DNA from: Candidatus Woesearchaeota archaeon
GTDB lineage: Archaea > Nanobdellota > Nanobdellia > Woesearchaeales > GW2011-AR4
Length of the DNA stretch: 64,000 nt
Assembly (NCBI GenBank): GCA_018303185.1
Contig: JAGVYR010000001.1
Coordinates: forward strand, 8,461 to 72,460
Direction: 5' to 3'
The notes under the pieces were generated by a model. That model was not told the DNA's origin, ran no database searches, and saw nothing but the letters and a program-made list of their open reading frames with translations. How positions within the stretch are numbered: the first letter of the stretch is position 1; every line of letters begins with the position of its first letter. The translations under genes and the position numbers were made by a program. Below are positions 3,792 to 59,211 of the stretch, piece after piece.

Positions 3792-5186
3792 TTACCTTTC
3801 GTAAACCTTAACATTATTTGTAAATCCGCTAACTTGCGATGCTGTCTTTCCAGGAAAAGCTTCGAATTTTATTTTTCTGCCTTCCAGCATCTGCACCAAT
3901 GCTACACCATTAACCTGTCCATCATGCGTGTACGCTTTGGAGATTTTGGCAAAATTCCATCCGTCCCAATTTTCATTTTTATCTGTCAGGTAGCCATACG
4001 GGACAAGCTCATATTTTATTATGCCATCCGTGGCATCAGCATCTTTTGGATCTGGCGCATTGCCTTTGACTGCAAACTGTTTTGCATCCCCTGCATAATC
4101 ACCCATGGAGACAATGATTAAAGCAGGATCTAATCCGTCATATGCAAAGGCAAGGTGTGTACTCCAATAGCCGGGCATGCGCTGGTATTCGGTCTTGCCA
4201 AAATAGCCGTTGGTATTTTCTTCAAACCAATTGCCCACTAATTTCCCGTCAATATCATAATCAATTTTCCCGCCGCGGGGCTCTTTTTGGCGAATGTTTC
4301 TGCCCAAGAGCTGTGTTCGTATGGGCTCAGCAAAATAATCGAACATATCGGCGTTGTGGAGTTTCCATGGCTCAGCAATGTAAGTCTCAGGAACAATGAA
4401 TCCGGAAAGGGTTATCCCATCATTATGTACAGAAAAATCAAACCCTGGCGCTTTTCCTATGGCTTCTCCTGCTTCAACTGCTGCAGTGTTATGTGTATCG
4501 GCAATGGCCTGTAATTTTTCTGATAATTGGTTGACATGGATATAAATGGTATAAAATGAGCAAGTGTGGTGGATAACGAGCCGATAATCGCCAATGCTGC
4601 TGGAGGAATATTCCTGCGGCATGCTCTGAACACTGGTTACAATTCCTGATGCTGGCGCTATAATGTCGCGGAATTTTGCCGTATCTTCCCTGTTGCTGGG
4701 AAAAAGCCATCCTTTTGCGTAATAATAACCATGGTCGATAGGCGTTACATGGCCGCCAATCATTAATCCTATTGGCTCGATGAGTTCAATGTCCTCAATA
4801 CGCATGGGCGGTGAGGTAAAAGTAATAGCCCCTTCGCCAGTGCATCCGCTATTCTCCTGCGGGCCAAAATCTTCTGCTTCAGGGTTTGGGGGAAAAATAA
4901 TCCGGCAGAGTTCAATTTCTTTTCCTCGGCAATACGATTCGCACCGTCCATGGTTATTCTGGCAGAAAGATTTGCATTCTTCTTCGTTAGGGCAGAGAGT
5001 TCCTAATCCTTTATCTCGTGCATTCTCCGGGGTTACTGCACCGGGTTGATAGGCATTTTTATTATTTTGGTTAATGGTTTCGTCCGATCTCTCAGGCTCA
5101 AAACTTTCTTGTTGAGCGCATCCACTTATGAAAATAACTAAAAAGACAGGCAATAGCAGTACCAAATAACCTCTTCTTAACCTCAT
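3792..5186 (-). CDS. secreted lipoprotein, Cys-rich N-terminal module, unknown function
   Basis: The long ORF runs to 5342, but the likely start is the Met at 5186 (MRLRRGYLVLLLPVFLVIFISGCAQQ, a signal peptide with a lipobox). A CxxxC-rich stretch follows. Confidence 0.6.
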   Translation of the reverse strand: MRLRRGYLVLLLPVFLVIFISGCAQQESFEPERSDETINQNNKNAYQPGAVTPENARDKGLGTLCPNEEECKSFCQNNHGRCESYCRGKEIELCRIIFPPNPEAEDFGPQENSGCTGEGAITFTSPPMRIEDIELIEPIGLMIGGHVTPIDHGYYYAKGWLFPSNREDTAKFRDIIAPASGIVTSVQSMPQEYSSSSIGDYRLVIHHTCSFYTIYIHVNQLSEKLQAIADTHNTAAVEAGEAIGKAPGFDFSVHNDGITLSGFIVPETYIAEPWKLHNADMFDYFAEPIRTQLLGRNIRQKEPRGGKIDYDIDGKLVGNWFEENTNGYFGKTEYQRMPGYWSTHLAFAYDGLDPALIIVSMGDYAGDAKQFAVKGNAPDPKDADATDGIIKYELVPYGYLTDKNENWDGWNFAKISKAYTHDGQVNGVALVQMLEGRKIKFEAFPGKTASQVSGFTNNVKVYER

Positions 5187-5214
5187 GGTATAATCTCTCT
5201 TCTCATTGTATAAT

Positions 5215-5356
5215 AAACTTTCGGCGGCCTTTGGAACTCTGCGGTGCTCACTTCGTTCGGGGCAGATAACAGGCATGCCATATGTTAAACTCAATAACAA
5301 AAACCGCACTAATCCCCGGGCGAAAGCCGCTAACCCTGGCAAAGCGAGATTCGGGA
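5215..5356 (-). repeat. degenerate copy of MITE-like repeat family A
   Basis: It shares ...gctcacttcgttcgg... and ggcaaagcgagattcgggacaaagcc with the copies at 9281-9426, 20606-20811 and 27886-28041. Confidence 0.4.
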
Positions 5357-5435
5357 CAAAGCCTATTTTCCAAAAATATTATAAACCCGAATGTTACTGC
5401 AAAGCCAGCCGAATAAAAAATTAAGGTGATAAAGC

Positions 5436-9240: not shown

Positions 9241-9280
9241 TTTTCAGTGTATTTTATTTAACTTATTTCAGGCTTTGTCA

Positions 9281-9426
9281 TAAATAAAGGCAGTGCCGAT
9301 TTGCGAGCCTTGTTTATAGCTCACCAAGCATGACAGGGGACGCTCCATCCGGGATGTCATGCCCGTGAAAAGCTCCTTCAGGCGAGCAGGCACTGCCCGA
9401 GCGAAGCGAGATTTGTGACAAAGCCT
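9281..9426 (-). repeat. MITE-like repeat family A copy (reverse orientation)
   Basis: Its reverse complement aligns along its length with the 20606-20811 copy (gtgcctgctcgcct...cttttcac...catccc...gctcgcaaatcggcac). The terminal inverted repeats are degenerate. Confidence 0.5.
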
Positions 9427-14428: not shown

Positions 14429-14453
14429 TATTATTTAAATATATAGCCTGCCA

Positions 14454-15409
14454 TGCTTGTTTGCAAGTTAAGGTTATAAGTGGGTTTCCCCACGCTTGTT
14501 TTTCGGAAGAAAAACGTGCAGGGTGGGGAGGACCCACAAATGGCAACGTATAGGATAGACCTTAAAAAGTTAATGAAAATAACAGGCAGATTTCTGCGCA
14601 GGCACGACGTGCCTGAGCACTTCAGCAAGAGCAAAAACGAGAAGTATACACTGCATCAGCAGCTTGTTTTATTCATATTGTACTGCCTGCTGGACCTGCC
14701 CATTGACCTTTTTGGTGAATGGATAGGACTTATGGACTTGTCAGGGATAGGCCTTGATTCAAAGCCGCATTATTCGACGATGTGGCGTGCGTGGCGACGC
14801 TTTTCGCCGCGCTTCCTTAGGAAGCTGGTAAAGGCAAGCGGCAGGGGCGGAAGGGACAAGTGCATTGCCCTTGACCCAACGCATATGGAAATTACCCGGC
14901 CAAGCATTGCCTATTGCAAGCGCACAAAGCGCAATCCTGCGCAGGAGCCGAACAGGAAAACAACCATTGCCACAGGCACAAGAAGCCTGAGGATTGTAGA
15001 CGCTATAATGCACAAGGACAGCCACAGGCACGGCCTTGACGACTTTGAAGAGATGGCAGGCGAATGGATAAAGGGAAAGACAATTGTTGCAGATACAGAG
15101 TTTGACGCTGAGGAAAGGTTTCATGGAATTGTCCTTTCATTTGGGGGCAAAGGCGTTGCCCCTTTGCGCCATAAAAACATCCAGATTTGGAGGACAAATG
15201 GGGCGCGACGCAAGCAATTGCGCCGGAGATGGCCTGGCAGAAGCTACCGCAGGAGGCCAATGGCAGAGACTCTGAACAGCATGCTGAAAAGGGGCATGAG
15301 CGCATTCTTGAGAGGCCGTACCGTCTGGCAGCAGGCAAGGCATTTCTACGCCAAATGCCTTGCGCACAATATGATTATGAGGTGTCAGGAATGAACTTGC
15401 AAACAAGCA
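14454..15409 (+). mobile_element. IS5-like insertion sequence, about 956 bp, intact
   Basis: It has perfect 16-bp terminal inverted repeats, TGCTTGTTTGCAAGTT at 14454-14469 and AACTTGCAAACAAGCA at 15394-15409. It is flanked by an 8-bp direct repeat GCCTGCCA (14446-14453 and 15410-17). It contains a single transposase ORF. Its GC content is clearly higher than that of the flanks. Confidence 0.75.
14540..15394 (+). CDS. DDE transposase, IS5/IS4 superfamily
   Basis: Motifs resemble the IS5-family D-D-E (IALDPTH; VADTEFDAEE; R...AET...LKRG). The GGGAGGA Shine-Dalgarno precedes the ATG at 14540. The stop overlaps the right inverted repeat. Confidence 0.7.
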   Translation: MATYRIDLKKLMKITGRFLRRHDVPEHFSKSKNEKYTLHQQLVLFILYCLLDLPIDLFGEWIGLMDLSGIGLDSKPHYSTMWRAWRRFSPRFLRKLVKASGRGGRDKCIALDPTHMEITRPSIAYCKRTKRNPAQEPNRKTTIATGTRSLRIVDAIMHKDSHRHGLDDFEEMAGEWIKGKTIVADTEFDAEERFHGIVLSFGGKGVAPLRHKNIQIWRTNGARRKQLRRRWPGRSYRRRPMAETLNSMLKRGMSAFLRGRTVWQQARHFYAKCLAHNMIMRCQE

Positions 15410-15422
15410 GCCTGCCAATAAC

Positions 15423-16525: not shown

Positions 16526-16581
16526 ATATAAAGTTTGCGGTTTTAAGTCCTGCTCTCAGATGTTCTTGGCGATATATTAAT

Positions 16582-16666
16582 GGGGGCTGTTAATTTTTAA
16601 TATTGATTAGCCACTATTATGTTCGAAAGACCTAACAAATGCTATTAAAAACTTAGGTCTTTCGTT
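16582..16666 (+). repeat. double-hairpin repeat R1, copy A
   Basis: About 94% identical to 20532-20615. It contains a perfect 12-bp inverted repeat cgaaagacctaa/ttaggtctttcg. Confidence 0.5.
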
Positions 16667-16856
16667 ATAACGAAAACCGAACTAATCCTCGGGCTAAAGT
16701 TTTGCGAAGCAAAGTCACGAACGAAGTGGCTTGACCCGAGGTTTTTATCGTTCGGTTTTCGTGGATTGGAAATGCAAGGAAACCACATTTCCGGCATGCC
16801 GAAAATCTTTGATTTTCGTGCATTCCGCATTGAAGTGCGGGGTTTTAGTTTGAAAT
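16667..16856 (+). repeat. repeat R2, copy A
   Basis: 13-bp inverted arms acgaaaaccgaac/gttcggttttcgt, then a roughly 70-bp block nearly identical to 52492-52562 (ggaaacc.catttccggcatgccgaaaatctttgattttcgtgcattcc...). Confidence 0.5.
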
Positions 16857-20458: not shown

Positions 20459-20531
20459 ATATTTAGATTAGTTCTACTGTTTAGTAATTAATAAAAATTT
20501 AATACAGTTATTATTGTTTCAAAATATAATA

Positions 20532-20615
20532 GGGGCTGTTAATTTTTAATATCAATCAGCCCCTATTATGTTCGAAAGATCTAACAAATGCTATTAAAAA
20601 CTTAGGTCTTTCGTT
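20532..20615 (+). repeat. double-hairpin repeat R1, copy B
   Basis: taggggctg...cagccccta, a 9-bp stem, plus the cgaaagatctaa/ttaggtctttcg stem. A second copy of the 16582 element. Confidence 0.5.
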
Positions 20616-20811
20616 GGCTATGTAGAAAATCTCGCTCCGCTCGCATAGTGCCTGCTCGCCTTTATGAACTTTTCACTTGCCTGACATCCCATAGGGCTAA
20701 TCTCACTCCGTTCGTTAGTTCGAGTATAGCTCAAACTTCCCCTGTCAGGCTGAATGAGCTATAAATAGGGCTCGCACATTGGCACTATGCTTATTTTCTA
20801 CAGAGCCCCTT
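20606..20811 (+). repeat. MITE-like repeat family A copy
   Basis: Terminal inverted repeats ggctatgtagaaaat / attttctacagagcc. The internal core is shared with 27886-28041 and 9281-9426. It contains a nested sub-element also seen at 476-545. Confidence 0.5.
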
Positions 20812-27358: not shown

Positions 27359-27838
27359 TCATTTCTTATGGTGCCCTGAGACCTGCCTGAAAAGCGCCTT
27401 GTTCTGGTAAGACTCTGCTATCTTCTTCACAATGAGATAGCTTATCGGGGCTATTGCAAAAGCAAGGATTATGTTTCCTACAATAAATTTCTTGCTGTAG
27501 TTGTAAACTGTATTCAAAAAGGTCACATCATACTGCACATGGGGCACTCCCTGAAAGATAAGCCCGCCAATCTTATAGCTCAGCGCATATACCGGGAATG
27601 TTGTGACAGGATTCCAGAAGAATATTGACGCAATTATCGCCAGCTTGCTGGCTCTTGGAAAGAAAAACGAAACCAATAGCCCTAAAATCAGGTTAAAACC
27701 GGGCGTCGGAAGAATGCTTATGAAAGTACCTATTGCAAAGCCAAAAGCTATTGCGTGCGGCGTCTTTCTTTCCTGCATAAGCTTCCTGTGATGCCTCTTT
27801 GCTTCTGCAATGAATTTCCTGAATATCCTCTTAGGCAT
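27359..27838 (-). CDS. DUF2062-family membrane protein
   Basis: 159 aa. The pattern HAIAFGFAIGTFISILPTPGFNL is typical of DUF2062. Confidence 0.6.
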   Translation of the reverse strand: MPKRIFRKFIAEAKRHHRKLMQERKTPHAIAFGFAIGTFISILPTPGFNLILGLLVSFFFPRASKLAIIASIFFWNPVTTFPVYALSYKIGGLIFQGVPHVQYDVTFLNTVYNYSKKFIVGNIILAFAIAPISYLIVKKIAESYQNKALFRQVSGHHKK

Positions 27839-27885
27839 GGCGTCTTGGAGACTTAGATGGCTATTTTAAATGTTGCTATTACTGA

Positions 27886-28041
27886 GGCTTCGGTGAAAAT
27901 CTCACTTCGTTCGGCTGGTGCCTGCTCGCCCTTATGAGTTTTTCTCAGGCATGCCACCCCGAATGGGGCATCCCCCGTCATGCTTAATGAGCTTTAAGCA
28001 TGGCTCGCACATTGGCACCAGCTACATTTTCACCGAAGCCT
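27886..28041 (+). mobile_element. MITE-like non-autonomous element (family A), apparently recent insertion
   Basis: 156 bp with perfect 15-bp terminal inverted repeats GGCTTCGGTGAAAAT / ATTTTCACCGAAGCC. It is flanked by a 9-bp direct repeat TATTACTGA on both sides. It has no ORF. Confidence 0.6.
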
Positions 28042-28042
28042 A

Positions 28043-28438
28043 TTACTGATTTCCTTTAAACGCCAGGCACGCAGAATTGATGCAGTATCTTTTGCCGGAA
28101 GTGCCTGGCCCGTCATTGAACACATGGCCGAGATGGCCGCCGCACTTTGCGCACAGGACTTCTGTCCGCATCATGCCATGGCTGAAATCCCTCTTCAAAA
28201 TAACTGCTTCTTTCACAGCAGGATCAGTAAAAGACGGCCAGCCTGTGCCGGAATCAAACTTTGTATCGGAAGAGAAAAGCTTCCCTCCGCAGCCTTTGCA
28301 GTGGTACATCCCGCCAGCCTTATGGCTCCAGTACTTTCCCGTGAAGGCAGGCTCGGTTCCTTTCTCCCTGAGGATGCGATATTCTTCTTCAGAGAGCTTG
28401 CTTTTCCAGTCTTTTTCAGATTTTTTGGTTTGTTCCAT
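28043..28438 (-). CDS. msrB: peptide-methionine (R)-S-oxide reductase MsrB
   Basis: CxxC...CxxC zinc site plus GWPSF and RYCINS catalytic motifs, 131 aa. Confidence 0.9.
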
Positions 28439-30721: not shown

Positions 30722-30800
30722 GGCGTGCGGCGAGGCTGGGGTCGCGCCCTGCGGGCTGCCGAGCAGGTTTTCGCAGAAAACCGTCGCACCGCCATAAAGC
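30722..30800 (+). repeat. GC-rich structured element R4, copy 1
   Basis: gcgtgcggcgagg...ggggtcgcgccctgcggg...aggttttcgcagaaaacc...gtcgcaccgcc. It is homologous to 51181-51262 and 53741-53832. Confidence 0.5.
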
Positions 30801-51180: not shown

Positions 51181-51262
51181 TTACCCGTAGCGGCGTGCGG
51201 CGAGGCAGGGGACGCTCCCTGCGGGATGCCGAGCAGGTTTCGAAGAAACCGTCGCACCGCCA
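51181..51262 (+). repeat. GC-rich structured element R4, copy 2
   Basis: gcggcgtgcggcgaggcaggggacgctccctgcgggatgccgagcaggtttcgaagaaaccgtcgcaccgcc. It ends about 36 nt before the ATG of the PhoU-like gene and is immediately followed by AATATAAT. Confidence 0.5.
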
Positions 51263-52411: not shown

Positions 52412-52564
52412 ACAAAACAATAACGAAAACCGAAATTATCCCTCTTAAAGGCAGAGATTTTTGCCGTTCGGTTTTCGGGATTGAAAATGCGAGGAAACCG
52501 CATTTCCGGCATGCCGAAAATCTTTGATTTTCGTGCATTCCACACTAAAGTGCAGGGGTTTTAG
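52412..52564 (+). repeat. repeat R2, copy B
   Basis: cgaaaaccgaa/ttcggttttcg inverted arms plus a 70-bp block nearly identical to 16782-16856. Confidence 0.5.
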
Positions 52565-53740: not shown

Positions 53741-53832
53741 AAATAGTTTTGGCGTGGCGTGCTACGAGCCGGGGGACGCCCCATACGGGGTGGCGAGTAG
53801 GGCTTTTGCGAGGCAAAAGACCGTAGCACCGC
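53741..53832 (+). repeat. GC-rich structured element R4, copy 3 (divergent)
   Basis: ggcgtg...gggggacgccccatacgggg...ggcttttgcgaggcaaaagacc...gcaccgcc. An AAAAATATAAAAATATTA box follows directly and the GDE gene starts about 30 nt later. Confidence 0.45.
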
Positions 53833-58966: not shown

Positions 58967-59211
58967 AAAACGGTTAAGTAAAATATTATGCTTTTTTTAT
59001 CTTTCCTCTGCCAGCAATAATGGCGGCTGTCGTCGCTCCGCTCCTCGTCGGACATCCCGTAGGGAGCGTCCCCTGTCCGACCAGCGCCATCGTTGGCTTA
59101 TATTTTTGTCACTTAATCTTACTTAACTCCACAAAACCAAAAGGTTTATATACTGATGATACTACTATTAAGTAATAAATATATTACTTAATAATACGGG
59201 GGGATGGTTGC

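Follow-up and report, generated by a model that had tools for sequence, protein, structure and literature searches.

What is the short, geneless stretch of DNA that lies between msrB and the gene of a DUF2062 membrane protein in the genome of a Candidatus Woesearchaeota archaeon, and how could it have arrived there with both neighbours left intact? The question was addressed in a window of 64,000 nucleotides (the whole stretch of DNA that was analysed), along with contigs from metagenomes and other collections. It can be said with considerable confidence that the element is a MITE, i.e., a non-autonomous cut-and-paste DNA transposon, and that the transposase acting on it in trans is most likely of the IS5 family.

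The element, called copy A here, occupies positions 27886-28040 on the plus strand. It is 155 bp long with 54% GC, is matched by the nhmmer profile of its family at E = 7e-47, and lacks a credible ORF, the only ones inside it being mechanical ORFs of 42-43 aa. The left terminal inverted repeat (TIR; 27886-27900, plus strand) is an exact match to GGCTTCGGTGAAAAT, and the right one (28026-28040, minus strand) is its exact reverse complement, all 15 of the 15 positions being paired. Exact matches to this 15-mer are found in the 64-kb window at the two ends of copy A and nowhere else. Just outside the TIRs, the 9-bp sequence TATTACTGA is present at 27877-27885 on the left and again at 28041-28049 on the right. 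This 9-mer occurs twice in the window, both times flanking copy A, where 0.38 occurrences are expected; at the base composition found here, any one pair of 9-bp flanks would agree by chance with a probability of about 4.5e-6. The original prediction had described perfect 15-bp TIRs, a flanking 9-bp duplication and an element free of ORFs, and these are borne out by the sequence, both repeats being unique in the window. Its length of 156 bp and its right limit at 28050 were each one base off, as the element measures 155 bp and the duplication ends at 28049. It had also allowed that the 9-bp repeat might be a coincidental genomic motif, which does not agree with the finding of the 9-mer nowhere else in the window.

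The msrB gene (28043-28438, minus strand) codes for a peptide-methionine (R)-S-oxide reductase of 131 aa with the PF01641 SelR domain. The DUF2062 gene (27359-27838, 159 aa, PF09835 at E = 1.7e-23) lies downstream on the same minus strand, with 204 bp between the two. Read on the minus strand, the right-hand duplication is TCAGTAATA, which consists of the last msrB codon CAG, the stop TAA (28043-28045) and TA. It was therefore correctly predicted, as these coordinates confirm, that the insertion had landed on the 3′ end of msrB with the stop codon inside the right-hand duplication. The further statement that the insertion ‘regenerates’ the stop needs to be qualified. The duplication does carry the native stop, but this is automatic in a target duplication, and the protein was never changed. 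The C-terminus of MsrB falls in the same alignment column as that of nine homologues; thus, the stop is native, and the protein has been neither shortened nor extended. On the other side of the element, the minus strand reads TTTAAAATA at 27862-27870. This TATA-like box precedes the DUF2062 ATG by 23 nt and would be an archaeal TATA box for a leaderless DUF2062 transcript, a role predicted from what is generally known of archaeal promoters. When the element and one copy of the duplication are subtracted, a spacer of 40 bp is left between the two genes. The insertion sits between the msrB stop and the TATA-like box and leaves both of them intact.

How old is this insertion? Eight loci from the contigs were inspected at the insertion point, four of them containing msrB and four containing the DUF2062 gene, and all of them were filled. 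These were drawn from 6 msrB-carrying and 12 DUF2062-carrying contigs from several groundwater samples, and the filled-site contigs are identical to one another except for one SNP. The reconstructed empty site of copy A would read ...AATGTTGCTATTACTGATTTCCTTT..., and its 24-mer, ATGTTGCTATTACTGATTTCCTTT, had 0 matches in the species-representative genome contigs and 0 in the metagenome contigs. Look-ups of the exact proteins of msrB and the DUF2062 gene similarly returned filled sites and none that were empty. The search for an empty site in metagenome data, which had been proposed as a check, thus yielded no unoccupied site either among the contigs or in the two DNA collections. The closest MsrB outside the same population is only 72% identical, and therefore no orthologous site is available for comparison with a sister genome. 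The perfect TIRs, the perfect duplication and a sibling copy of 98% identity at another locus speak in favour of recency. The claim of a ‘recent’ insertion is accordingly upheld relative to the family, but not relative to the population, as all the sampled contigs carry it. The insertion is young relative to the family, yet fixed in the sampled population, and it is probably selectively neutral.

Copy A is not alone. Two other full copies are present in the window. Copy B (9271-9425, minus strand) is 155 bp long and 78% identical to copy A; its TIRs read GGCTTTGTCAyAAAT, and its flanks are degenerate (TGAGATGA / TGAAATAA, 6/8). Copy C (20616-20807, plus strand) is 192 bp long, with TIRs GGCTmTGTAGAAAAT and flanks tCTTTCGTT / cCTTTCGTT, i.e., (t/c)CTTTCGTT, matching at 8/9 positions. 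The loop of its central hairpin holds a nested module of some 38-41 nt (~20697-20735). Copy C interrupts another repeat, and a paralogue of this repeat (16578-16670, plus strand, family D9, 93%; ...GGTCTTTCGTTATAA) is continuous across the junction in the alignment. This uninterrupted stretch serves as a paralogous empty site for copy C. Among the metagenome contigs, L005 880-1071 and L014 307-498 are variants of the same insertion as 20616-20807, with identical flanks. They differ by about 8 substitutions clustered within about 45 nt of the 3′ part, and the sequence in L005 is the same as that of the copy at a different locus, L013. Such a difference suggests a patchwise conversion between copies.

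Further copies were sought with the conserved 5′ region of the family, by which 13 metagenome contigs were matched; contigs overlapping the loci of the window itself were removed before the new copies were counted. In addition to the three full copies of the window, at least seven further loci were found in this way. Perfect duplications (9/9) are seen at three loci with three different sequences, namely copy A, L007/L016 (TATTTTTTA) and L011 (GATTTTTGG). At two more, L009/L010 (GAATAACAA / GAATGACAA) and copy C, the repeats agree at 8/9 positions; at L015 the agreement is about 8/9, with a slip of one base. As these independent loci have 9-bp repeats of their own, the 9-bp duplication is a trait of the family. 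The copy at L011 is the one that is 98% identical to copy A; the remaining pairs of copies are 76-96% identical, and TIR mismatches in copies other than A number 0-2. All copies are intergenic, several of them being only 0-15 bp away from a gene end. The family pattern gave 0 matches in species-representative genome contigs, a collection from which the organism is absent, and 0 in viral contigs. Thus, the family shows the features by which a MITE is known, i.e., short length, no transposase gene, TIRs, duplications of constant length and variable sequence, and dispersed intergenic copies.

Three ‘older degenerate copies’ had been listed in the original prediction, and this account could be kept only in part. 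The stretch at 5215-5356 is not a copy; it has no profile match at E ≤ 1 and offers just a 14-nt motif and a 26-nt end-like stretch. The other two, copies B and C, are indeed related, but neither of them is decayed. Both are intact and belong to different subfamilies, with 76-81% identity and no more than 1 mismatch in their TIRs. The region at 5215-5364 is rather a composite of a reversed family-like 5′ end at 5345-5364 (GGCTTTGTCCCGAATCTCGC), a CTCACTTCGTTCGG motif at 5247-5260 and a stretch that is similar to the repeat at 16650-16700. The start of a mechanical 516-aa ORF (3792-5342) falls within this region; its true start is probably further downstream in the gene. Distant relatives with the same architecture and other stems, ending in GGTCGGTGCGAAATCTCATTCTTCGGGTTGCCATC ... 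GATGGCAACC..., were also noticed (L008 1400-1600, L018 10701-10870 and L011 4640-4800). The L018 copy is chimeric, with the 3′ two-thirds of the MITE inside such a distant-relative element. The shared architecture points to a wider superfamily.

What, then, moves these elements? The TIR consensus of the family is GGCTYTGTWGAAAAT. Ends that begin with GGC and duplications of 8-9 bp are traits of the IS5 family (9 bp in the IS903 group and 8 bp in the ISH1 group). The ends of the MITE start with GGCT and its duplication is 9 bp, as expected of an IS5-family-derived MITE. Further, one copy (L017) has the end GGCTTTGTTGAAAATC, the first 12 nt of which are the first 12 of the inverted repeat of IS903B, GGCTTTGTTGAATAAATC; the direct repeat of IS903B is also 9 bp (PMC10569121).

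An insertion sequence of the IS5 family is present in the window itself. It spans 14454-15408 on the plus strand (955 bp) and has the TIR (T)GCTTGTTTGCAAGTT; on either side lies a copy of AGCCTGCCA (14445-14453 and 15409-15417). Its transposase gene (14540-15394, plus strand) codes for 284 aa from the ATG. The protein matches the NCBIfam model NF033579, ‘IS5 family transposase’, at E = 1.5e-24 over positions 20-287 of 289, which is below the curated cut-off of the model. A Pfam search with it gave no match even at E = 10; some of its relatives do carry PF01609. Haloarchaeal transposases of the IS5 family, that of ISHvo2 among them, are 25-28% identical to it, and no match to IS903 was found. 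An identical protein, from Candidatus Woesearchaeota archaeon, is labelled ‘hypothetical protein’ at NCBI. The IS copies are identical at three sites, flanked by AGCCTGCCA, ATGCAAATC and ACAAAAACC, respectively; these repeats are 9 bp long, or 8 bp if the terminal A is counted within the IS. Relatives of the IS at 76-83% identity have the ends GGCTTGTTTGCAAGTT and duplications of 8-9 bp. The IS and the MITEs co-occur in the same groundwater metagenome samples, and contigs with the same IS also carry archaeal ribosomal and RNA polymerase genes.

Two side observations concern this IS. Several metagenome contigs (L018-L027) join the left IS flank of the window to the right flank of another site, which reflects either assembly chimerism across the repeat or an IS-mediated rearrangement. 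An inverted repeat, GTGGGTTTCCCCAC ... GTGGGGAGGACCCAC, lies upstream of the transposase start (14480-14540) and is kept, with changes on both arms, in the relatives at 76-83% identity (L028-L033). It may be a leader structure that controls the translation of the transposase.

How close is this IS to the MITEs? The GGCTTGTTTGCAAGTT ends share 11 of 16 positions with the MITE ends, and the ends of the window IS have 9 of 15 positions in common with those of copy A. By this comparison, the two sets of inverted repeats are related at the family level and not identical. An autonomous element with the MITE ends or subterminal sequence was absent from the window and from about 180 kb of fetched loci. 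All 13 metagenome matches to the MITE 5′ region were MITEs as well, with no autonomous partner among them. The IS itself falls short of being such a partner: its ends agree with those of the MITEs at just 9-11 of 15-16 positions, and its subterminal sequence is not shared. The earlier view that no matching transposase lies in the window is therefore right in that no element combining the exact MITE ends with a transposase gene was found. The description of the IS at 14454 as ‘unrelated’ has to be withdrawn, as its transposase is of the IS5 family, its duplications are 8-9 bp long, and the ends of its clade share 11/16 positions with those of the MITEs. The IS is the sole candidate source of the transposase that was found, or else a relative of the source.

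On this basis, the following course of events is proposed. A DDE transposase, most likely of the IS5 family and supplied in trans, would bind the two 15-bp inverted ends, excise the element and insert it where the two target strands have been cut 9 bp apart; the repair of this stagger would leave a 9-bp direct repeat. For copy A, the target would have been TCAGTAATA, i.e., the last msrB codon, its stop and two more bases, in the 40-bp spacer that separates msrB from the predicted promoter of the DUF2062 gene. As the target is duplicated, msrB would keep its own stop on one side, and the TATA-like box of the DUF2062 gene would stay intact on the other. The proposal draws on what was directly seen, namely the ends, the duplication, the multiple copies with independent duplications, the sibling copy, the IS5-type ends and the multi-copy IS. 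Judging from the sequences, the family probably moves by IS5-type transposition, with a transposase that presumably comes from the IS at 14454-15408 or from a close, unsampled relative. Against the proposal, the sequences searched held no autonomous element with the MITE ends, and the IS has only 9-11 of 15-16 end positions in common with them. Neither insertion nor excision was observed at the copy A locus, and no empty site was found among the contigs. Further, a single transposase with a fixed end sequence fails to explain why the ends change on both arms between subfamilies.

This last point leads to the fold of the element. Copy A is predicted to form a branched hairpin and not a plain palindrome. 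It is made up of P1 (the TIRs), P2 of 10 bp (GCTGGTGCC/GGCACCAGC) and then three inner hairpins, and a 13-nt bulge, CTCRCTYCGYTCG, is present on one side only and kept in every copy. Folding energies of -72.5 kcal/mol (z = -7.7) and -73.2 kcal/mol (z = -6.4) are predicted for the two strands. Of the cells in ten distinct copies, 96% are paired. Changes on both sides were observed in 12 of 43 pairs, where shuffles gave 6.0 +/- 1.6 such pairs (0 of 500) and slid controls 0-1; this test covers ten related sequences, and kinship alone can beat shuffles without any real structure. Five of the double-changed pairs are in the TIRs, where the ends vary between subfamilies at positions 5, 6 and 8-11 with both arms changing together, and four are in P2, which exists in five different versions among the copies, each of them fully complementary. 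The unpaired motifs AATCTCRCTYCGYTCG, GTGCCTGCTCGCC and GGCTCGCA are invariant, and AATCTCRCTYCGYTCG recurs in other repeat families of the window. This strong co-variation of the stems around constant unpaired motifs is the only unusual feature of the family.

Nested inserts have a hot spot in the central hairpin loop of the MITE (CCC-GNRA-GGG). Four copies (window 20697-20735, L005, L013 and L017) carry there a module of about 41 nt, CTAATCTCACTYCGTTCGTTAGTTCGAGyrwAGCTCAAACT. The same module (487-527) is found at the corresponding position of another repeat family, at 430-540 of the window, and a relative of the latter repeat at 59020-59092 is without it. In L008 (954-1288), a chain of short hairpins of about 190 nt is found at the same loop position. 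None of the nested inserts has a flanking duplication. Besides the MITE, the 64-kb window holds no fewer than four families of intergenic hairpin repeats that are rich in GC: 430-540 and 59020-59092; 30722-30790, 51192-51262 and 53756-53826; 16763-16846 and 52478-52561; and 16578-16670 and 20527-20615. Several of them share with the MITE the module GACATCCC-GNRA-GGGAGCGTCCCCTGTC or the motif CTCGCTTCGCTCGG. For a DPANN archaeon, the genome has unusually many repeats of this kind. A wider but unlikely reading is that the MITE and several of these families form one class of modular mobile structured elements, in which the branched hairpin, and not a fixed end sequence, would be recognised or selected. 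The shared AATCTCRCTYCGYTCG and CCC-GNRA-GGG-AGCG-TCCCC hairpin, the co-varying stems, the invariant motifs and the nested modules are the evidence for such a class.

Three readings of the co-variation were considered. Each subfamily may be matched to its own transposase; an extruded hairpin may allow one arm to be corrected from the other, through template switching or mismatch repair; or the hairpin may be selected as RNA or as single-stranded DNA. Arm-to-arm correction of this kind in quasi-palindromes can mimic co-variation without selection. The third reading, carried to its end, would make the family mainly a structured RNA or single-stranded DNA element, with transposase mobility being secondary. 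The hairpin might then serve in RNA stability, as a terminator or insulator in transcripts such as that of msrB and DUF2062, or in mobilisation. In its favour are the very stable fold on both strands, the 96% of paired cells with 12 double-changed pairs above both the shuffled and the slid controls, the five complementary versions of P2, the invariant unpaired motifs with AATCTCRCTYCGYTCG recurring in other families, and the asymmetric bulge retained everywhere. Nevertheless, the 9-bp duplications and the IS5-like ends are those of transposase-type mobility. G.U wobbles fill 22 cells in 6 columns, with no clear excess over A.C mismatches, which fill 12 cells in 8 columns, and thus no strand is favoured. 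Both orientations with respect to the neighbouring genes are seen, copy A being antisense and copy B sense. With no clear excess of G.U and with both orientations, selection at the RNA level does not follow from these data. The co-variation test, with ten related sequences, is weak, and correction between the arms could give the same pattern without selection. Rfam 15 also gave no match at the gathering score in the window, the hits around the element being at chance level (E = 1.6 and 4.6). It is thus improbable that the family is chiefly such an element, and the probability that the co-varying structure is functional is low.

The other explanations fare much worse. REP/BIME sequences are hairpin repeats without TIRs or target duplications that are tied to a Y1 transposase (RAYT). 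Their stems typically co-vary around conserved unpaired motifs, as they do here, and GC-rich hairpin repeats abound in this genome. Even so, it is very unlikely that a RAYT (IS200/IS605-type) enzyme has spread the family, since the MITE has both TIRs and 9-bp duplications and no Y1 or RAYT gene was noticed among the 10 ORFs of the window that were scanned. A chance palindrome with coincidental flanks, to which the same low probability is given, is at odds with three perfect and two 8/9 independent 9-bp duplications, each expected at about 4.5e-6. Copy A could also be imagined as what is left of a full-length IS that inserted here and then lost its interior, which would leave TIRs and a duplication of the same appearance, but the same interior of 153-155 bp (about 190 bp with the nested module) occurs at no fewer than nine other loci with different flanks and duplications, so it is the short form that moves and this idea is effectively refuted.

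The closest known kind is therefore the IS5-family type of MITE, as found in the IS903 and ISH1 groups, and copy A is a clean but ordinary example of it. The likeness extends to the length of 155 bp, the lack of an ORF, the 15-bp TIRs starting with GGC, the 9-bp duplication as in IS903B, the many intergenic copies and the presence of an IS5-family IS in the genome. The differences are that the search turned up no IS whose ends are identical or whose subterminal sequence is shared, that the co-resident transposase is 25-28% identical to haloarchaeal enzymes with no IS903 match, and that the TIR sequence varies by subfamily on both arms together. Correia elements of Neisseria and the pneumococcal BOX and RUP elements are short intergenic repeats, TIR-bounded or modular, that form stable hairpins and are co-transcribed with their neighbours. 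BOX elements also gain internal modules, like the nested 41-nt module here. In contrast, Correia elements duplicate TA and not 9 bp, and all three are bacterial and unrelated in sequence; the likeness would be one of functional analogy. In a census of prokaryotic MITEs (NAR 2024), a Woesearchaea genome is among the most MITE-dense archaeal genomes, with 105 cMITEs/Mb (PMC11602168). The 64-kb window has three full copies and several other hairpin repeat families; the census is a count, and it is with this count that the present family is compared.

The finding leaves the current view of MITEs unchanged. It provides a clean, fully annotated case of a MITE family that is active, or was so until recently, in a genome of the Woesearchaeota (DPANN), and links this family to IS5-type transposition. 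The example shows how MITEs can fit into very short intergenic spacers with the flanking genes unharmed. Further, a multi-copy IS5-family IS has been recognised where annotation pipelines say ‘hypothetical protein’. The change of both arms across the subfamilies poses a small question, whether it arises from selection on the hairpin or from correction of one arm by the other. If the class of modular structured elements were true, it would point to hairpin-dependent mobilisation or to a host-level RNA role in the small-genome DPANN archaea.
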